The notes under the pieces were generated by a model. That model was given only the letters and a program-made list of their open reading frames with translations, had not been told where the DNA came from and did not search any database. From Pedobacter sp. (GTDB lineage Bacteria; Desulfobacterota; Desulfuromonadia; Desulfuromonadales; Syntrophotaleaceae), in assembly GCA_050253415.1 (NCBI GenBank), contig JBFWJC010000011.1:1-30381 (forward strand): a stretch of 30,381 bases of DNA, in the 5' to 3' direction. The position numbers and the translations under genes are program-made. Shown piece after piece: positions 1-8,023 of this stretch (position 1 is its first letter; the number at the start of each line of letters is the position of its first letter).

Positions 1-27
1 TACCGGAGGCGGAGCCGATGCGTCGGA
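1..27 (-). promoter_or_regulatory. Candidate element-sigma promoter TCCGAC-N16-CGGTA (leftward)
   Basis: Minus strand reads TCCGAC (27-22), 16 nt, CGGTA (5-1), immediately after the sigma stop codon. Same motif and spacing at 4251-4277. Confidence 0.55.
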
Positions 28-29
28 GA

Positions 30-614
30 TCACAGGTAGTCCTCGAGCCCGGCCTCGCGGAACGCGTCCCGGAGCTTGCTCAGCCGGTCGTAGAGGGTGG
101 TTCTGGGAATGCCCATCTCCCGGGCGATTTCGGCCATGGTGCTGTCGTGCAGGCGCACGCACAGATCCCGGAGCTCTTCCGGCAACAAGGCGATGGCCCG
201 GTCGAGATCCATGCGGATCTCATGGGCGAGACGCTCCCTTGTCTCGCGGGTGCCGCCTCCCAGGGAGCCCTCGCTGTCCAGGAAGTCGATCCGTTCGGTG
301 GTGTCGCCTTCGCCGTTGTCGAGGGGTTCGTTGAGTGAGGTTTGGCAGAGCCGCCAGTCCCGGCATTGGGCGAACCGGGCCTCCAGAATGGTGGAGATGT
401 GACGTTCGACGATCCGGGCCATGAAGGTGGTCTTCTTGGCCTTGGCGGGATTGAAATGCCGCATCCGCTGCAGCAGATCGATCATCAGTTCCTGTTCGAG
501 GTCGGGTCTGTCGTCCTCGGTGAATCCGGCCTTGCCTACGAGTTGACGTGCTTTGTGCCGAATGAGGTCGGCGGCATACTTGTCGATGCCGTCGTAAGAA
601 TTCTGTGAAACCAT
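30..614 (-). CDS. ECF-like sigma-70 family RNA polymerase sigma factor (element-encoded)
   Basis: 194 aa. Region-2-like segment DLEQELMIDLL...FNPAKAKKTTFMARIV and region-4 HTH STMAEIAREMGIPRTTLYDRLSKLR. RBS GAGGAGG 5 nt before ATG. Confidence 0.85.
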   Translation of the reverse strand: MVSQNSYDGIDKYAADLIRHKARQLVGKAGFTEDDRPDLEQELMIDLLQRMRHFNPAKAKKTTFMARIVERHISTILEARFAQCRDWRLCQTSLNEPLDNGEGDTTERIDFLDSEGSLGGGTRETRERLAHEIRMDLDRAIALLPEELRDLCVRLHDSTMAEIAREMGIPRTTLYDRLSKLRDAFREAGLEDYL

Positions 615-676
615 CGGGGCCTCCTCGGAGCGAGGAGGAGGTCCGCGTGGGTGTCGGCACGGGCCAGATCACAGGA

Positions 677-760
677 CAAAGCTGTCGCGTGGGCGAAGGG
701 GTCGCAGGTACGCCGCCAATTGCCGTATTCGGCTCGGCGACACCCACAACAGCCTCCGCC
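677..760 (-). ncRNA. Putative structured leader RNA upstream of the sigma gene (copy B of shared hairpin)
   Basis: GCUGUUG/CGACAGC and UGGGUG/CGCCCA stems with an inner GCCG-AAUA-CGGC hairpin. 15/16 nt shared with 4352-4367. Confidence 0.5.
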
Positions 761-809
761 ATGCGTCCAGCTTGTTGTCCAGTGTCTAAGGGTTCAGGTC
801 GTTACGTGT

Positions 810-1130
810 TCAGGCTGCCCGTTCCTCGATGCGCATCAGGAACGGGAGACCGTGCTTGATCTCGAGCAGGCAGACTTTTCCGCTGCCCATCTGCGCGAGG
901 TGCTCCAGCAGCGCCACGACCTCTTGCTTGAGAATGAAGTCATCCTGGTCGCGCTCGGGCCGGGGACCGCTTTGTCCGCCCAGCTTGATCTCGCGCTCGA
1001 TGACCGTGTCAGGGGTGAGTTCCGGCTCGCCGTCGCGGACCGGAATGTTGGAGATGCGGCCGAAGTTGATGTCCTGCATCAGCTCGATGAGTCGCCGCTT
1101 CGGTGGGGTGAGATTTTTTTTGTTCATCAT
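810..1130 (-). CDS. Small hypothetical protein (106 aa) co-oriented with the sigma gene
   Basis: Start reassigned to ATG at 1130 because of RBS AGGAGG (1135-1140). GC-rich coding-like codon usage. Confidence 0.75.
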   Translation of the reverse strand: MMNKKNLTPPKRRLIELMQDINFGRISNIPVRDGEPELTPDTVIEREIKLGGQSGPRPERDQDDFILKQEVVALLEHLAQMGSGKVCLLEIKHGLPFLMRIEERAA

Positions 1131-1199
1131 TCTGCCTCCTAAGCATGGTTTGATGTTTCTGGAGGGCAGAATAAATCCGGTTTTCATGAAGCCCTGTTT

Positions 1200-1329
1200 T
1201 CTGGACTTGTCTTTGGACTGTCCAAAATGAGCGACCCCAAAAAACAAAAGGCCGTCAGGTTTTTCACCTGCGGCCTCGGTTGCGCGGAAATATTTTTTAA
1301 GAAAAGTTTCTTTGGACTGTTATTTGGAC
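1200..1329. repeat. T(T/C)TGGAC boxes: two tandem pairs plus one inverted copy
   Basis: TCTGGAC 1200, TTTGGAC 1212, GTCCAAA 1220, TTTGGAC 1311, TTTGGAC 1323. 12-bp direct repeat TCTTTGGACTGT at 1210 and 1309. Confidence 0.7.
1240..1276 (-). terminator. Intrinsic terminator after the lexA-like operon
   Basis: Minus strand AGGCCGCAGGT-GAAAA-ACCTG(A)CGGCCT followed by TTTGTTTTTT. Confidence 0.65.
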
Positions 1330-2393
1330 TTGACTATGTTTTCGGGAAAACGCACGCCTTTCTCCTTGCGAAAGTCTATAGCAACACCTAGTTTTTTCCG
1401 GATATTATTCAGTTGTCGTTGCATACGGCCTGGGTCTCCCGAAGCGGGAAAATACTCATCTTTCTTCCACGCACACGCATTCATAAAAGTCTTATGCCGT
1501 ACCCATCCGTGGCCGATCTGATCGTAAAGAATTTCCATGATCTTGGCGATGATGGACTCATTGCGGACAAAAATGTGTCCTTTGTCCACCCCGTTCACGA
1601 ACCAGTGGACTCTTTCGCCGATTTCTTTTCGTTCGAGAACGATCTTATCCTCTTCGGTTATTGTATTTACAGAATCGTCTCTCGATTCGTCTTCCCGCAG
1701 TGCCTCTCCAGCGTGACCAATGAAATGTGCAACTTGCAAATCCGCTTTCTTGGCAATGGCATGCCAATCCAGCAAGAAAGCACAAGAAGAGTTTGTTGTG
1801 ATGGCGACCATAATAATTCCAAGTCGTTTCATCTGTTGGCGGATTTCTGGGGAAAGTGCGATGCCGCCTGGGGTTAAAATGACAATCCCCACGGTATCAA
1901 GCTCTCGGTCAAGTCTCCTGCATCGAGCAATAACATCATCTTCATCCAGGTTTGGAATCGAAAGAAAAATTTCCAACGTCCCGAGGCTATCAAGTGTCTT
2001 AAGCCCCATAGGAATCAGGCCGTGATGATTCGCAAACCCGCTGCCTTCAATGCCATTCGCTTGGCGGATCACTGTCGTGAGTTTTGGAAGGGAGAGTTCA
2101 TACTGCCGGACGTCGTCCTCGGTGAGCGGGATCGGATCGAAATAATTGTCCTCATCAGCAACCCCAAATATACCCTTCGAGGTCTGGCGGACAATCAGAT
2201 CGCCACCTAGGGGAAAACGTTTCGGTCGAGGAATCTCCGTTGCTCTTGATGTTTCCCTCAGGATTCCTTTCTCTCGAAGGACACGGAACTCATCTTCTGG
2301 GTAACACTCCAGTTCCCCGTGCAGAAAGACAGGACTCTCGACTTGGTCGAGACGCTGAAAGATGAAGTTGAGGAGCCCCTCAGTCAACGACAA
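1320..2393 (-). CDS. Hypothetical protein with probable C-terminal OmpR-like winged-helix DNA-binding domain
   Basis: 357 aa, overlaps the upstream gene end. C-terminus IMEILY...QRQLNNIRKKLG-VAIDFRKEKGVRF resembles the Trans_reg_C recognition helix and wing. Confidence 0.7.
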   Translation of the reverse strand: MSLTEGLLNFIFQRLDQVESPVFLHGELECYPEDEFRVLREKGILRETSRATEIPRPKRFPLGGDLIVRQTSKGIFGVADEDNYFDPIPLTEDDVRQYELSLPKLTTVIRQANGIEGSGFANHHGLIPMGLKTLDSLGTLEIFLSIPNLDEDDVIARCRRLDRELDTVGIVILTPGGIALSPEIRQQMKRLGIIMVAITTNSSCAFLLDWHAIAKKADLQVAHFIGHAGEALREDESRDDSVNTITEEDKIVLERKEIGERVHWFVNGVDKGHIFVRNESIIAKIMEILYDQIGHGWVRHKTFMNACAWKKDEYFPASGDPGRMQRQLNNIRKKLGVAIDFRKEKGVRFPENIVKSK

Positions 2394-3507
2394 TCCCCCA
2401 ATTCTTCAGATATCGGAATACGTCTTCGGCATGTGTGGCCCGTTTGAACTTGATTTTGTTGGTGCCGGACAATTCGATGCGTTTTCCCCGTAGGTCATCG
2501 GGGAACATGATTTTAAATACGGCCCGTCGGATCGTGCCACCCCCCAAACGCTTACGCAGGTAAGTCTTTTCAAGCGTCTCCATCACATTCCTGGACCGCA
2601 CTATAAATGATGGGAACGGCGCTTGCGGAAGGTTGAAATGGATCTCGGCGAGGATGACTGAATGATCTTCGTCAACCGGCATGTCAAAGTCCTCCTCCGC
2701 GATCCTGGCGAGGTTTAGTCTATCTGCTGATCCGGGCGAGTCGAAAAAGTCTTCGTCTTTGAGGCAGCACTCAGCAAAAGCCTTGCGGAGAGCCGTCTCT
2801 TCTTTTTCAACAGCAGCCTCAATTTCAATCTGGCCGGTCTCGTTGTTATAGCTGATGAAATCTTGCTGGGCCGGACGTAGGATGGTCGGGGAGACTTTCG
2901 GACTTGCAGTGGTTCCTTTGAATATCAGTTCCGCTTTGACCCGCTTCTCGTGGTAAATGATGAAATTAGTGTATGCTCCTTCTTGATAGTAGCGGACGAG
3001 AACACGGTCACTGTTTTTATGATTTTTGAAAATCTCGGCAAGTTTTGATTGAAAGACTCCGGAAGCTGTATCTACGTCTGCAATGGCTGCTGCAGTCTTC
3101 CCGCGAAATATGGTGAATCGTTCTGCACGCCAAAGGGTATACCGATCATATGCGAGATTAAAAGCCTCCTCATTTTCAGTTCTGACCTTAAGGCTCAGGC
3201 ACTCGACCGGCAACTCCCCGTTTCCTTCCGGCGAATAATTGCATTCCTGACAAGCTGCCACGATGTCTTCATGACCTCGCTCTGTACAGAGGTCATAAGC
3301 CATATAGAGACTCTCAAGCAGATCATCCTTGCTATAGCCATCGCCACTAACGAGGAATTCTTTGAAGAGGGGAACATCAAGCGATGCGGAATCAAGCTCC
3401 AGATGGCCATTCCAAAGTTCAACGAAACTACGGAGAATGGGCTCATAGCCTTGGAATTTATCCAAAAACCGCTCTGCGTTAAAGGTTCGATGTTTCGGCT
3501 TCCCCAT
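2380..3507 (-). CDS. Hypothetical protein (375 aa)
   Basis: Long ORF with RBS GGAGG overlapping the lexA end. No motif recognised. Confidence 0.75.
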   Translation of the reverse strand: MGKPKHRTFNAERFLDKFQGYEPILRSFVELWNGHLELDSASLDVPLFKEFLVSGDGYSKDDLLESLYMAYDLCTERGHEDIVAACQECNYSPEGNGELPVECLSLKVRTENEEAFNLAYDRYTLWRAERFTIFRGKTAAAIADVDTASGVFQSKLAEIFKNHKNSDRVLVRYYQEGAYTNFIIYHEKRVKAELIFKGTTASPKVSPTILRPAQQDFISYNNETGQIEIEAAVEKEETALRKAFAECCLKDEDFFDSPGSADRLNLARIAEEDFDMPVDEDHSVILAEIHFNLPQAPFPSFIVRSRNVMETLEKTYLRKRLGGGTIRRAVFKIMFPDDLRGKRIELSGTNKIKFKRATHAEDVFRYLKNWGIVVD

Positions 3508-3512
3508 TTTTC

Positions 3513-4145
3513 TTACCTCCCTTGTTTATGCCTAACGGCAACGACCTTACCCAACACGCGAAGATCATCCTCCGGCCTGATCCGGATCTTTCTTACCTCC
3601 GGGTTCTCGGGCACCAATTCGATGAGCTCGTCTTTGATTTTCAGGCGCTTGACAGTCGCCTCGTTGTTGAGCAGCGCGACAACGATGTCTCCGTCCTCGG
3701 CGATGGGCTGCTGCCGCACGATGATCAAATCACCATCGTTGATACCGGCACCGACCATGCTGTCACCCACCGCACGGAGTGCGAAGTGCTGACCGGAACG
3801 AACGACGTTCGATTCGACCAGTACTTGGCCGATGATGTTCTCCTCAGCCAGGATGGGGCAGCCAGCCGCCACCATACCCACTACAGGTACTGAAACCAGG
3901 GAGGCAGCCATCTCGCTGGGACGGCGGGCGACGGCAATGCCGCGAGACTTCCCGTCCTCTCGCTTCAGGTATCCCTTGCGCACCAGTTGGTTGATCCGGT
4001 CGTGGGCACTCGCCGGGCTGATTTCAAAGATCTCGCTCAGTTCCTTCACCGTTGGAGGGAAGCCCTTGGCATCGACAAAACGACATATCGCTTCAAGCGT
4101 TTTCCGCTGCAACGGCGTTATCTCATCCGTCTTCGCTTTGCCCAT
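3513..4145 (-). CDS. lexA: LexA/CI-type autocleaving repressor (element-encoded)
   Basis: N-terminal wHTH GFPPTVKELSE, Ala-Gly cleavage site VAAG, catalytic Ser (GDSM) and Lys (ATVKR). ATG at 4145 with GGAG RBS. Confidence 0.9.
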   Translation of the reverse strand: MGKAKTDEITPLQRKTLEAICRFVDAKGFPPTVKELSEIFEISPASAHDRINQLVRKGYLKREDGKSRGIAVARRPSEMAASLVSVPVVGMVAAGCPILAEENIIGQVLVESNVVRSGQHFALRAVGDSMVGAGINDGDLIIVRQQPIAEDGDIVVALLNNEATVKRLKIKDELIELVPENPEVRKIRIRPEDDLRVLGKVVAVRHKQGR

Positions 4146-4199
4146 GGCGTCTCCATTTCTGTTGAAAGACAAAAAGGCGCAATGCGCCAGCAAATCCTA

Positions 4200-4229
4200 A
4201 TAATATAAACCTGATGCATATCAGGTCAA
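4200..4229 (-). promoter_or_regulatory. Sigma70 promoter of the repressor overlapped by a palindromic operator
   Basis: Minus strand TTGACC-16-TATATT (or -18-TATTAT). Perfect palindrome ACCTGAT-GCAT-ATCAGGT at 4209-4226. Confidence 0.7.
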
Positions 4230-4250
4230 GAAATAATCTCACACCTGATT

Positions 4251-4277
4251 TCCGACACTTCCACGAGCCCCTCGGTA
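4251..4277 (+). promoter_or_regulatory. Candidate element-sigma promoter TCCGAC-N16-CGGTA (rightward, towards recombinase operon)
   Basis: TCCGAC 4251-4256, CGGTA 4273-4277. Identical spacing to the copy at 1-27. Operator half-site ACCTGAT at 4243-4249. Confidence 0.55.
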
Positions 4278-4340
4278 GGTAAGGCCTGAAGAATGCCGGT
4301 TTGAAACCGGACGAGCAGTTAGAAACCAGATAACCGACCA

Positions 4341-4400
4341 GAGGCGGAGCTGAGGCGGTTGTGGGTGCCATCGAACGCGCATCCCGACCGCCACCGTTTT
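4341..4400 (+). ncRNA. Putative structured leader RNA (copy A of shared hairpin)
   Basis: GGCGGUUG/CGACCGCC and GGGUGC/GCAUCC stems spanning 4354-4392. Confidence 0.5.
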
Positions 4401-4446
4401 CTGGCATCCACACCATCCAGTCCCCCGGTCCCACCGGAGGTGTTCG

Positions 4447-4689
4447 ATGTTGGATGTCCAGGAAATGAATGATGGGCCGGGGACGGATGACCTTGGCGAA
4501 AACGGCAAACCCGGCCGCTTGTCGGGTGAGGCGAGGCTCCAGTCAGCCGCCTCCATTCTGGCCACGGCGATCCTGCGCCGAAAGGCAAAAAATGCATGTG
4601 TGGGCAATGAGTTAGAGGTTTTCGAAGATTCTTCCCCTGTGCTCGGAGAAGGACTTGATTCATTGCCGGAACAGAGCATTCATTCATGA
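4447..4689 (+). CDS. Small hypothetical protein upstream of DUF2924 gene
   Basis: 80 aa with RBS GGAGG at 4436-4440. Contains an amphipathic helix RLQSAASILATAILRRK. Confidence 0.55.
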   Translation: MLDVQEMNDGPGTDDLGENGKPGRLSGEARLQSAASILATAILRRKAKNACVGNELEVFEDSSPVLGEGLDSLPEQSIHS

Positions 4690-4723
4690 CAACTCGTCCG
4701 GAAACCAAAATAAGGAGTTGAAA

Positions 4724-5248
4724 ATGAATGAGTTACAGAACGCCGCCACGGGCGGCAAGAATCAGGACCGAACCCGAAACTCGGTCCTTCGGCAGATGGC
4801 TCTGCTGCAATCCATGTCCCTGGAGCAGCTCCGGGAAAAATGGCTCGACCTCTACGGCGAAGAGCCGCCCCAGTACAAGAAGCAATTCCTCATCAAGCGG
4901 CTGGCCTATCGCATCCAGGAGCTTTTCTACGGCGGACTGTCCGAGCAGGCCAAGGTCCATCTCCAGCAGGCCGCCAAGGATGACCCGGTCGCCACTGTCA
5001 ATCGACGCATCCCAGAAGAGCGGAAATCTAACGAGGCGATCCTGCCCGGAACCAGACTGGTGCGGGTCTGGAACGACCGGCGCTATGAGGTGATCGTCCT
5101 TGCCGATGGCTACGAGTTCGAAGGCCGCACCTTCCGGTCGCTCAGCGCGGTGGCCAGGGAGATCACCGGGACGCGCTGGAACGGTAAGGTCTTTTTCGGG
5201 CTGAAGAAGGTTTACGGCAGAAAAGCCGAGGGAGGTTCGGATGCTTGA
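4724..5248 (+). CDS. DUF2924 domain protein
   Basis: LREKWLDLYG, RLAYRIQELFYGGL, PGTRLVRVW and SLSAVAREITGTRWNG motifs. RBS AAGGAG before ATG 4724. Overlaps the recombinase start. Confidence 0.85.
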   Translation: MNELQNAATGGKNQDRTRNSVLRQMALLQSMSLEQLREKWLDLYGEEPPQYKKQFLIKRLAYRIQELFYGGLSEQAKVHLQQAAKDDPVATVNRRIPEERKSNEAILPGTRLVRVWNDRRYEVIVLADGYEFEGRTFRSLSAVAREITGTRWNGKVFFGLKKVYGRKAEGGSDA

Positions 5249-6827
5249 TAACAGCAATGTCGCGCCGGGCAAAAACAAAACCCTGCGCTGTGCCATCTAC
5301 ACCCGCAAGAGCCACGAGGAAGGACTCGAACAGGAGTTCAACTCGCTGGATGCCCAACGGGAGTCGGCGGAACACTATATCGAGGCCCAGAGGATGCGTG
5401 GCTGGACGGCTCTGCCGGATCGCTACGACGATGGTGGTTTCTCCGGTGGGAATATGGAGCGCCCGGGGCTGCGCCGACTGCTGGCGGACATCGACGCCGG
5501 GAAGATTGATGTGATCGTGGTCTACAAGGTCGACCGCCTGTCCCGCTCGCTACTGGACTTCATGAAGATGATCGACCTCTTCAACGAAAAGGGCGTCAGC
5601 TTCGTCTCGGTCACCCAGCACTTCAGCACCACCGATCCCACCGGCCGGATGTTTCTCGGCATCCTGATTACCTTCGCCCAGTACGAGCGGGAGGTCATCG
5701 CCGAACGTATCCGGGACAAGGTGGCGGCAGCCAAGCGCCGGGGAAAATACTGCGGCGGCGTACCCATTCTCGGATACGATGTCGACCGGGATAACAAGAA
5801 GCTGCTGGTCAACCCCGATGAAGCCAGGACAGTGCAATACATTTTCCGCCGCTTCATCCAGATCGGATCGGCCAAAAAGCTGGGCCAGGAATTGAACGAA
5901 CAGGGATACCGCACCAAGGCCTGGACCACCAAGAAAGGTAAGGTTCGCGAGGGCTCCGAATGGAACACCGCCCATATCTACCGGCTGCTCAACAACCGGA
6001 TCTATATCGGCGAGATCGCCCACAAGGATCGCAGCTACCCCGGCGAGCACGAGGGGATCATCGACCGGGCGACCTGGGACAAGGTTCAGGCCATCCTGGA
6101 GGACAACAAACCGGTCAAGGTGTCCATGGCCAGAACCAAAATGGTCGCCCCGCTGAAAGGCGTTATCCGCTGCGGCCACTGCGGCTGCTCGATGGGACCG
6201 ACCTACGCCCGCAAGAACGGCCGCCACTACACCTATTACATCTGCCAGAAGGACAGCAAGCGGACCGTGAGCCGATGCCCCCTCAAACGAATTCCCGCCG
6301 GGGACATCGAGCAGGCGGTGATCGAGCAGTTGAGCGCGGTGTTCCGCACACCGACGCTGGTGGCCAAAACTTACTTCGCGGCCCGGGACATCGAGCAGGC
6401 GGAGCGGGAGCGGCTGTTCAAGCAGAAAGCCCAACTCGAGATGGAGCTGTCGCAGGTGAGGGAGCAGGCACTCGAACTGATGAAACCCGGCAGCGATCAG
6501 CCGGGCAAGGCCGAGATGCTCACGACCGTCAACCGCCAGGCGGTCGAGCTCTCGAAACAACTGACGCACGTGAGCGAGCGATGCAGAGCCTACCGGGGGA
6601 ACAACATCACGGAACAGGACGTTTCGGAGGCCTTCCAGAATGTCGAGGGCTTCTGGGAGGACCTTTTCCCGGTGGAGCGAAACCGGCTCATCCGCCTCCT
6701 GGTGGATAAGGTGGAGATCCGCGAGACCGGAATCGATATGGAGCTGCGCACCAACGGGCTGACAACGCTCATCGCCGAGCTGGCTGGTCTGGCCTGCGAA
6801 GTCACCGAACGGAGGGCAAGCCGATGA
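5241..6827 (+). CDS. Large serine recombinase/integrase (resolvase + recombinase + Zn-ribbon + coiled coil)
   Basis: YTRKS catalytic serine, VYKVDRLSR, CGHCG...YYIC...RCP zinc ribbon. 528 aa. Confidence 0.95.
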   Translation: MLDNSNVAPGKNKTLRCAIYTRKSHEEGLEQEFNSLDAQRESAEHYIEAQRMRGWTALPDRYDDGGFSGGNMERPGLRRLLADIDAGKIDVIVVYKVDRLSRSLLDFMKMIDLFNEKGVSFVSVTQHFSTTDPTGRMFLGILITFAQYEREVIAERIRDKVAAAKRRGKYCGGVPILGYDVDRDNKKLLVNPDEARTVQYIFRRFIQIGSAKKLGQELNEQGYRTKAWTTKKGKVREGSEWNTAHIYRLLNNRIYIGEIAHKDRSYPGEHEGIIDRATWDKVQAILEDNKPVKVSMARTKMVAPLKGVIRCGHCGCSMGPTYARKNGRHYTYYICQKDSKRTVSRCPLKRIPAGDIEQAVIEQLSAVFRTPTLVAKTYFAARDIEQAERERLFKQKAQLEMELSQVREQALELMKPGSDQPGKAEMLTTVNRQAVELSKQLTHVSERCRAYRGNNITEQDVSEAFQNVEGFWEDLFPVERNRLIRLLVDKVEIRETGIDMELRTNGLTTLIAELAGLACEVTERRASR

Positions 6828-7246
6828 AAATGAAGCCGACCATTACCGTGGCCGACAACGGCAACCTGCAGATCCACATCCCGATGCTGATCCGGCGCAT
6901 GCGCGGTCGCAAGACGGTCATCGCTCCCCAGGCCCTGGATGGAGATGCCCCCGGGGCACAGGAGCCAGTGCAGTCCGCCGTCCTCCAGGCGCTGGCAAGG
7001 GCCTTTTCCTGGGCCGACATCCTCGAATCCGGCCAGATCAAGTCCATCAGCGAGCTTGCCCGTACCCTCGACGTCGATGGCTCGTATGTGGCCCGCATTC
7101 TCAAGCTGACGACCCTGGCCCCCGACATCGTCGAAGCCCTGATCAACGGCGAGGAACCCAACGGGCTCTCGTTGGCGAAGCTGACCCAGAGCTTCCCGGA
7201 GGACTGGGCCGAGCAGCGCCGCCAGTTCGGCTTCGCCACCGACTGA
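6824..7246 (+). CDS. Recombinase-associated HTH protein
   Basis: ATGA overlap with the recombinase. HTH SISELARTLDVDGSYVARILKLTTLAPDIV. Confidence 0.75.
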   Translation: MKMKPTITVADNGNLQIHIPMLIRRMRGRKTVIAPQALDGDAPGAQEPVQSAVLQALARAFSWADILESGQIKSISELARTLDVDGSYVARILKLTTLAPDIVEALINGEEPNGLSLAKLTQSFPEDWAEQRRQFGFATD

Positions 7247-7665: not shown

Positions 7666-8023
7666 TGGTGGAGGTGGCGGGAATCGAACCCGCGTCCGAA
7701 AATCTTTCACATAAGGCTTCTACATGCGTAGTCGTTGTTTTAAATTTAACCGGATACAACTCCCATCGACAGGATGTGTATCAAGCGAGTTTACTTAAGT
7801 TTCGCTCTTGCGCCGTAAACACTCGCTCAAGCTAGCCCACTAAATTGACGTCTTAAAGCCCCGCGCAGGCGAAGAGACCCAAGACGAAGCAGCAATTAAG
7901 CTGCTAATGCGTACGAAACGTCAGTATCGGCGTTTGTATTGTTGCCAGTTTTTTAACGAGGCCAACTGGCGTCCCCGGCATGCCACCTTCGCTTCCAATC
8001 CCCGTCGAAACCGTGTCACCCCC
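7666..8023 (-). ncRNA. ssrA: tmRNA (transfer-messenger RNA), tag ADTDVSYALAA
   Basis: 5' GGGGGTGACACGGTTTCGAC and 3' GGTTCGATTCCCGCCACCTCCACCA. Tag ORF at 7931-7896 ends YALAA-stop. Lies directly downstream of smpB. Confidence 0.97.

Follow-up and report, generated by a model that had tools for sequence, protein, structure and literature searches.

The 30,381-nt stretch of DNA analysed here (the window) forms the start of contig C11 in a 4.1-Mb assembly and carries a prophage-like island integrated beside the gene of a transfer-messenger RNA (tmRNA). Two untranslated leaders of this island contain one copy each of the same repeat. Copy A heads the operon of a small open reading frame (ORF), p80, together with a DUF2924 gene and a large serine recombinase gene, and copy B lies between p106 and a sigma factor gene. 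From comparison with homologous sequences, we favour with moderate confidence the reading that these repeats are the cores of two homologous structured cis-regulatory leaders, which would act as a multi-state switch gating both operons. The aligned homologues indicate that a 10-nt strand in each copy, GUUGUGGGUG, takes part in mutually exclusive helices, each of which is maintained by evolution, with an upstream box, a local arm and a distal arm. The features of the two leaders are as follows, with the source of each assignment in brackets.

4282..4446, plus strand: leader A, the entire untranslated leader of the p80/DUF2924/recombinase operon (folding).
4296-4310, plus strand: 5'-proximal hairpin CCGGUUUGAAACCGG of leader A (folding).
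4320..4375, plus strand: copy A, the 56-nt 5' module (covariance models R1 and R2, minimum free energy (MFE) folds of nascent prefixes).
4358..4367, plus strand: invariant 10-mer GUUGUGGGUG of copy A, the strand shared by alternative partners (sequence comparison).
4379..4392, plus strand: local partner of copy A, GCAUCCCGACCGCC (MFE, 19 short-type relatives).
4402..4414, plus strand: distal partner of copy A, UGGCAUCCACACC, pairing with 4358-4370 (covariation, RNAalifold, full-leader MFE).
4425..4440, plus strand: hairpin CCGG-UCCCA-CCGG overlapping the Shine-Dalgarno (SD) sequence of p80, GGAGG at 4436-4440 (count of SD pairing).
615..809, minus strand: leader B, intercistronic between p106 and the sigma gene (folding, alignment).
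733..788, minus strand: copy B, the 56-nt 5' module (R1, R2, nascent-prefix MFE).
741..750, minus strand: invariant 10-mer GUUGUGGGUG of copy B (sequence comparison).
692..709, minus strand: local partner of copy B, ACCUGCGAC (709-701) and CCUUCGCC (699-692) (MFE, RNAalifold, covariation).
646..656, minus strand: distal partner of copy B, CGACACCCACG, pairing with UGUGGGUGUCG at 748-738 (covariation).
619..640, minus strand: SD-sequestering hairpin, in which the anti-SD CCUCCUC (638-632) pairs with the sigma SD GAGGAGG (626-620) (folding).

An earlier note on this DNA had described the repeat as GAGGC(G/T)GTTGTGGGTG, and its coordinates were reproduced: GAGGCGGTTGTGGGTG at 4352-4367 (+) and GAGGCTGTTGTGGGTG at 756-741 (-) are the same at 15 of 16 positions, with the G/T as the sole difference between the two window copies. 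The GGCGGAG that it had seen near the start of each repeat was located at 4343-4349 in copy A and at 760-754 (-) in copy B, the gap to the repeat being 3 nt in one copy vs 8 nt in the other. A search of the 4.1-Mb genome with the 16-mer returned just the two window sites at up to one mismatch and 7 sites at up to two, and in 3 of 100 shuffles of the window there were at least two matches at up to three mismatches. The repeat is thus present in both leaders as had been claimed, but the homologous unit is about 56 nt long and not 16 nt.

Homologous loci were gathered by a scan of one genome per species, from which 80 of 128 confirmed loci were returned (L021-L100), and three sets of sequences were aligned from them. 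Set A2 holds 37 distinct sigma leaders, with the window standing for the identical L021 group and L051 excluded for its 90-nt insertion. Set A3 holds 35 distinct copy-A leaders; L039, in which no SD/ATG was found, was dropped, and L022, L024, L045 and L056 were omitted as near-identical to the window type. Set A4 consists of the 47 distinct modules that are left when identical rows are removed from these 37 copy-B and 35 copy-A sequences. In the 47-module alignment the layout of the module is (C)ACC-AG-ACAAC, a mini-hairpin, CGGAG and GUUGUGGGUG, with conserved unpaired AG/G and CGGAG positions.

Within the module a 5' hairpin is made up of ACC/GGU, ACAAC(N)/(N)GUUGU and the mini-hairpin. Its 14 pairs are formed in 91.0% of alignment cells, compared with 25-54% when the arms are slid; eight of them have changed on both sides, and none of 500 shuffles attains the score. 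In copy A, ACC (4325-4327) and AUAACCG (4330-4336) pair with GGU (4364-4366) and CGGUUGU (4356-4362), and the apical mini-hairpin joins CAG (4339-4341) with CUG (4350-4352). In copy B, CACU (785-782) and ACAACA (778-773) pair with GGUG (744-741) and UGUUGU (751-746), and CGC (765-763) with GCG (759-757). It is in this hairpin that the G/U difference between the copies is compensated (C4335-G4357 in copy A vs A773-U751 in copy B), at the least conserved pair of the helix (GC 15, CG 5, UG 4, AU 3, UA 3 and other 17 over the 47 modules). When a nascent prefix ending after the 10-mer is folded, the 5' hairpin appears in 36 of 37 cases for copy B and in 34 of 35 for copy A, and it is conserved although it is missing from the full-length MFE.

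The second partner of the strand is the local downstream arm. For copy A, the local hairpin proposed in the earlier note is the MFE structure of 4340-4400 (-28.8 kcal/mol, z -2.4) and is paired in 245 of 247 cells of the 19 short-type copy-A leaders, whose variation is confined to one side of the helix, so that this proposal was borne out. For copy B, the partner that had been put forward, CGCCCAcgCGACAGC, is paired in 80.5% of cells (43-53% when slid), and a better local arm, 692-709, was found inside what had been described as its 45-nt 'loop'; here ACCUGCGAC pairs with GUUGUGGGU and CCUUCGCC with GGCGGAGG (760-753). This sigma-leader hairpin is the consensus of unguided RNAalifold and also the MFE structure in the window, and over the 37 sequences its 21 pairs are formed in 95.6% of cells vs 38-55% when slid, six of them with double changes. 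Leader B from 660 to 800 (-) folds at -70.9 kcal/mol (z -6.4), a stability equalled in 0 of 200 shuffles. The copy-B pairing of the earlier note thus has the weakest support of all; the pair that it regarded as compensated reads UA 10, CG 3, other 14 and gap 10, being kept in only 13 of the 27 sequences with letters. Instead of a single hairpin with variable loops, as had been supposed, there is a 5' hairpin module whose 3' strand, GUUGUGGGUG, has mutually exclusive partners.

In 6 of 37 sigma leaders a U-run of at least six U in eight comes after the local hairpin. Among the 19 short-type copy-A leaders it stands directly after the hairpin in six of L051-60 type (CGCCUUUUGUUUU), and in the 11 window-type rows it begins 3 nt past the stem, the window copy A reading GUUUUCU at 4396-4402. 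A terminator consensus scan of the window flagged neither leader.

The distal helix of copy A comprises 13 pairs, is formed in 94.7% of cells vs 30-58% when slid and is predicted by RNAalifold; 10 of the 13 pairs are present in the full MFE of the window leader A. Its counterpart in copy B has 10 pairs formed in 98.6% of cells (22-57% when slid), with variation at pair 60/178 (UA 28, CG 7, UG 2), and extends by one further pair, 52/186 (UG 21, UA 13, CG 2). The distal arm lies 5-10 nt 5' of the SD-sequestering hairpin, and 33 of 37 copy-B and 30 of 35 copy-A leaders have an SD that is paired to 75% or more. Of the 37 copy-B leaders, 35 show the local helix in their full-length MFE fold and the other two (L091 and L097) the distal helix; in the MFE folds of 18 of 35 copy-A leaders at least 10 of the 13 distal pairs are found. 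Long-type copy A forms one domain closed by the distal helix.

Rare changes in the strand itself are matched in several of these helices at once. In L095/96 the strand has gone from GUUGU to GUCGU, matched by ACGAC in the upstream box, CACGAC in the local arm and a G in the distal arm, and in L099 the change from GGGUG to GAGCG is matched by CGCU, GCUC and a distal CGUUC. Compensatory changes are seen between arms that are 30-130 nt apart. G-U cells outnumber A-C cells by 137 to 6 in the local helix, 34 to 1 and 81 to 1 in the distal helices and 38 to 13 in the 5' hairpin, which argues for RNA of the sense strand; for the opposite strand or duplex DNA, pairing would fall to 77-90%. The central contention of the earlier note, a selected RNA structure common to both leaders, is upheld by these compensatory changes in four helices and by the excess of G-U over A-C. 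Pairing is best within each leader, since in none of the 17 two-leader elements does a distal arm fit the strand of the other leader better than its own, and where the leaders differ (U vs C after GGGUG) the distal arm matches its own strand. Trans pairing between leaders would still reach 9-11 of 11 pairs. The invariance of the 10-mer is sufficiently explained by its several partners alone.

The sigma gene was found in 11 of 233 genomes of the order; this patchy occurrence at 92-99% identity points to a mobile element. The 80 loci span many phyla and include isolates of Desulfobacterota and Gammaproteobacteria. In L021-L050 and L098 the sigma factor is 95-99% identical under the labels Desulfobacterota, Gamma- and Alphaproteobacteria, Omnitrophota, Planctomycetota, Chloroflexota, Verrucomicrobiota and others, which represents either a very wide host range or the spreading of the element over bins in metagenome-assembled genomes; the phylum spread of the near-identical copies may be exaggerated by such binning. 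The 10-mer GTTGTGGGTG, with up to two mismatches, occurs 96-256 nt before sigma in 76 of the 80 loci, which had been found via the sigma protein. It is exact in 73 and variant in L095, L096 and L099, and persists even where sigma is only 40-50% identical. The four loci without it are L050, which is cut, and L061-63, which have a different leader.

Those three loci (L061:9850-10003, L062:17-169 and L063:3020-3172) carry a Kiritimatiellales/Verrucomicrobiota-type sigma variant of 61-63% identity. In their leader, too, the SD is sequestered by a hairpin, formed between CCUGUCAUU and AAUGACAGG, with which GGUGACAGG on its 5' side could compete.

The second copy precedes the first small ORF of the recombinase operon wherever this operon is within reach, also in element types with both copies on one strand. 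An invertible segment or cassette bounded by inverted repeats was considered and rejected, as both copies are on the same strand in L054- and L069-type elements. Element variants are homologous from about 4324 onwards, where the module starts.

A joint covariance model, R1, was searched against the window and the 80 loci (1.16 Mb) and gave 123 matches at 54-75 bits, the next best reaching 16 bits; 46 sources had two matches, 31 had one, 4 had none and 0 had three. In the source genome R1 found only the two window copies, A at 67.5 and B at 65.0 bits. A second model, R2, was built from 22 sigma leaders of other elements and holds no copy A and no window sequence. With R2 the score was 65.3 bits for the window copy B and 38.3 bits for its copy A (E 4e-9, such covariance-model E-values being rough), and copy A was also detected in all other loci tested (17.8-52 bits). 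In the virus database IMG/VR, a loose pattern scan gave more than 120 stretches, and of 80 viral-contig loci fetched, 23 were true module matches. In 11 of these that were inspected, the ORF behind the module was sigma in five, p80-like in four and unassignable in two. A search with Rfam 15 (4227 models) at the gathering threshold of the whole window, L054 and L069 yielded just tmRNA, tRNA and a pan motif elsewhere, and at E<=5 on window positions 1-5000 there were two unrelated weak matches, both outside the leaders. The result listings and abstract openings returned by a literature search on the leader RNA, the 10-mer, DUF2924/serine recombinase and related phages contained no description of it.

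The genes of the island and the other features around the leaders are these.

30..614, minus strand: sigma-70/ECF-type sigma factor gene, 3' of leader B (phrog_1740; TIGR02937 at 55.8 bits vs a cut-off of 42.9).
810..1130, minus strand: p106, a conserved protein 5' of leader B in every element type (ORF, homologue comparison).
1320-3507, minus strand: two ORFs (357 and 375 aa) with no family match, within the region swapped between variants.
3513-4145, minus strand: LexA-family repressor, adjoining leader A.
4252..4281, plus strand: island-specific two-box motif CCGACA-N15-CGGTAGGTA, located 5' of leader A and a candidate for the promoter read by the island sigma (motif search).
4447..4689, plus strand: p80, a small ORF behind leader A in every element type (ORF comparison).
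4724-5248, plus strand: DUF2924 gene (family match).
5241-6827, plus strand: large serine recombinase gene (family match).
6824-7246, plus strand: p140 gene (ORF).
7666-8023, minus strand: tmRNA (Rfam scan).

The attachment end of the island is at the tmRNA, about 3 kb away. The pan motif of the Rfam scan (RF01749, 13331-13418 on the minus strand, 42.4 bits vs a gathering threshold of 36.2) belongs to the host part of the window. In relatives, sigma is followed on its 3' side by genes for a PD-(D/E)XK nuclease, AAA_24, DUF669, ERCC4, a RecD2-like helicase and a primase of 1100 aa, and from this replication-type gene set the element was judged to be prophage-like. In the window the island stops at the contig start just past sigma, and the replication module was not found elsewhere in the assembly by blastn with 10 kb from L023.

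Members of the p80 family are 67-87 aa long, with a conserved helix and basic patch (..EIASILAxGYLRHR..RR) and a C-terminal acidic motif (EES..FTE..LD); there was no match in Pfam, PHROG or NCBIfam. The protein p106, which is 35-68% identical across element types, likewise had no family match. Its AlphaFold2 model (mean predicted local distance difference test score 91.5) is a confident alpha-beta-beta duplicated fold, for which Foldseek against the PDB gave nothing below E 0.4 and a wide VIA-align search a best Z of 3.0.

The segment from p106 to leader A (1131-4323) is a mosaic: in relatives, other sequence takes the place of the ORFs at 1320-3507 and of most of the repressor gene. At about 1200-3600 the G+C content is lower, 0.46-0.53, than in the flanks (0.57-0.66). 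Four metagenome contig runs, which are probably DNA, showed mosaic breakpoints at about 1091/1112, 3539 and 4324 and no transcript ends. On the minus strand at about 1190-1330, 5' of p106, there are four AGTCCAAAG-like direct repeats on the two sides of a terminator-like hairpin (about 1235-1275), and these repeats, located in the variant-swapped region, may be an operator array. A palindrome, AACCTGATGCATATCAGGT (4208-4227), overlaps the sigma-70-like promoter TTGACC-16-TATATT of the LexA-family gene, and an additional half-site, CACCTGAT (4240-4247), abuts the CCGACA box; both are likely operators of the LexA/CI-type repressor of the island.

The two-box motif has the consensus CCGAC(A/G)-N15-17-CGGTA(A/G)GTA and lies 32-50 nt 5' of leader A. 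In its strict form it has one match in the 4.1-Mb genome. In the 80 loci, 111 of 141 CGGTARGTA sites have CCGACR 15-17 nt upstream, the chance expectation for CGGTARGTA in the loci being about 17 sites by our own calculation. The motif recurs at operon starts, directly after sigma (about +600 from the sigma start) and at about +9.7 kb, and it is probably a promoter read by the island sigma factor. With this separate promoter-like motif 5' of leader A, the repeat itself need not be a promoter. An apparent third leader site, ACCRGAGGCGGAGC at window positions 2-15, was rejected: it is the spacer of the post-sigma motif on the opposite strand, and it arose because the first 29 bases of the window are a truncated post-sigma copy of the two-box motif. 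The likeness is not maintained, as relatives read GCUCCGGCUCCGGU. The intergenic region of about 100 nt after sigma (+585 to +700 in L023, L054, L069 and others) starts at this promoter-like motif and contains a conserved long hairpin before the next gene, at -40 to -67 kcal/mol in single-sequence folds.

In the switch that we propose, the 5' hairpin, formed by GUUGUGGGUG and the (C)ACC-AG-ACAAC box, would be the first to form during transcription. Unless it were stabilised, the thermodynamically favoured local hairpin would capture the GUUGUGGGUG strand, and in some elements this hairpin could be an intrinsic terminator; the distal pairing would represent a third state beside the ribosome-binding site. 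A protein, a ligand or folding kinetics are candidate triggers, and p80 is the positional candidate for such a protein because it lies directly behind leader A in all element types and possesses the conserved helix and basic patch. The shared module would couple expression of the recombinase (integration/excision) operon with translation of sigma; as the same module stands on both operons, the two would be gated together.

A number of observations weigh against such a switch. The SD is paired in every predicted conformation and none fully frees it, and in most sigma leaders the local state is favoured by 3-20 kcal/mol over the state combining the 5' hairpin with the distal helix. Long-type copy-A leaders are without a local competitor, so a three-way switch is not universal, and the U-run is missing from most leaders, the window copy B included. 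Much of the percentage paired comes from near-invariant columns, the double changes come from few lineages (L058-type, L095/96 and L099) and the shuffle statistics are inflated by related sequences. Among the sequencing runs listed for the region, none is recorded as RNA.

A rival reading is a static structured RNA that stabilises the mRNA, serves RNase III/E processing or damps translation constitutively, with the alternative helices as folding intermediates or lineage variants instead of regulated states. In its favour, 35 of 37 sigma leaders have the local hairpin as their clear ground state, every predicted state contains the SD hairpin, and long-type copy A is a single domain closed by its distal helix, with no local competitor. 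We nevertheless regard this explanation as unlikely: that 10 nt stay complementary to three or four partners, with coordinated compensation in L095 and L099, is hardly to be expected of one static fold, and the 5' hairpin is conserved despite its absence from the full-length MFE. Still less probable is a small RNA released from one leader and acting in trans as P4 CI or P1 C4 do, GUUGUGGGUG or its complement pairing with the other leader so as to couple the two operons or confer immunity. Both leaders do share the strand and complementary arms, with 9-11 of 11 pairs possible in trans, and a LexA/CI-type repressor lies beside leader A in a prophage-like element. However, cis pairing is at least as good in every two-leader element, distal arms match their own strand where the leaders differ, the strand is invariant across elements with a swapped repressor region, unlike immunity determinants, and Rfam gave no match at E<=5. 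A double-stranded DNA site (an operator, a promoter element of the island sigma or a recombinase site) with incidental RNA folds would agree with an invariant sequence present twice per element upstream of genes in regulatory regions, but is very improbable given the G-U excess (137, 34 and 81 vs 6, 1 and 1 A-C cells), the compensation between distant arms, the variable GGCGGAG spacing, the distinct two-box promoter-like motif and the attachment end at the tmRNA, about 3 kb off.

The module defines a candidate for a new RNA family, one that is rich in information and separated by a clear gap in score (at least 54 vs 16 bits). It stands at two decision points of a widespread temperate element, one at the recombinase operon and one at the sigma factor that the element itself encodes. 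A 10-nt strand with three to four maintained partners is an unusually rich architecture for switching, and these partners account for a strand that stays invariant while the proteins diverge to 40% identity. It raises the testable question of how islands couple excision with late transcription, and model R1 together with the CCGAC-N16-CGGTARGTA motif can be used as a marker for such islands in genomes and viromes.

Among phages with a related gene set, Acidithiobacillus phage AcaML1 carries small partner genes on both sides of a large serine recombinase, its 'recombinase small subunit' Gp2 being analogous to p140, and Wolbachia phage WO has a sigma factor about 25% identical to that of the island. 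By gene comparison both are distant gene-set relatives of the island; the leader module was not found in AcaML1 (11.5 kb searched with filters off, best 9.1 bits). The likeness to P1 C4 and P4 CI RNAs raised in the earlier note holds for the pattern of complementarity, a central sequence being complementary to both sides within a prophage operon leader near the immunity region. It is an analogy only, in that the leader pairs best in cis (17 of 17), its recognition strand is not divergent between variants and there was no match at E<=5 in Rfam, which holds a C4 model. ON-type attenuators and riboswitch platforms such as the pbuE adenine riboswitch, and protein-dependent RAT/terminator systems, are similar in that the 3' strand of the first-formed, sequence-conserved helix is shared with a more stable downstream hairpin, followed in a subset of our leaders by a U-run. 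They differ in that the leaders have a third, distal partner beside an SD hairpin, mostly lack the U-run and have no Rfam match.

Processive antitermination RNAs are found in phage lambda (nutL/nutR, with N) and in HK022 (putL/putR). A nut site consists of boxA (CGCUCUUA-like) followed by a boxB hairpin bound by N, while in HK022 put RNA two adjacent stem-loops act on RNA polymerase without a protein factor. The island resembles these systems in having one RNA element twice, heading two operons of a temperate element that are divergent in the window as are pL and pR, and in having the small basic-patch protein p80 first behind copy A, as N lies behind nutL. It is conceivable, though we consider it rather doubtful, that the leaders are the RNA half of an undescribed nut/put-like phage system, in which p80 or a host metabolite would hold the 5' hairpin on both transcripts against its competitors and so jointly switch on read-through of the integrase operon and translation of sigma. 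Were this true, a nut/put-like module would be a post-transcriptional commitment switch common to prophage-like elements in many phyla. The boxA motif CGCUCUUA, with up to one mismatch, had seven matches in the window, none of them in 615-809 or 4282-4446. The leaders also differ from lambda nut in their fold, a 5' hairpin with competing partners and an SD hairpin, in which no boxB-type hairpin is apparent, and p80 has no family assignment. On the feature compared, boxA, the leaders are thus not lambda nut sites. Taken as a whole, we rate the leader as a new RNA family of a known kind, the cis-regulatory leader, with an unusual multi-partner design.

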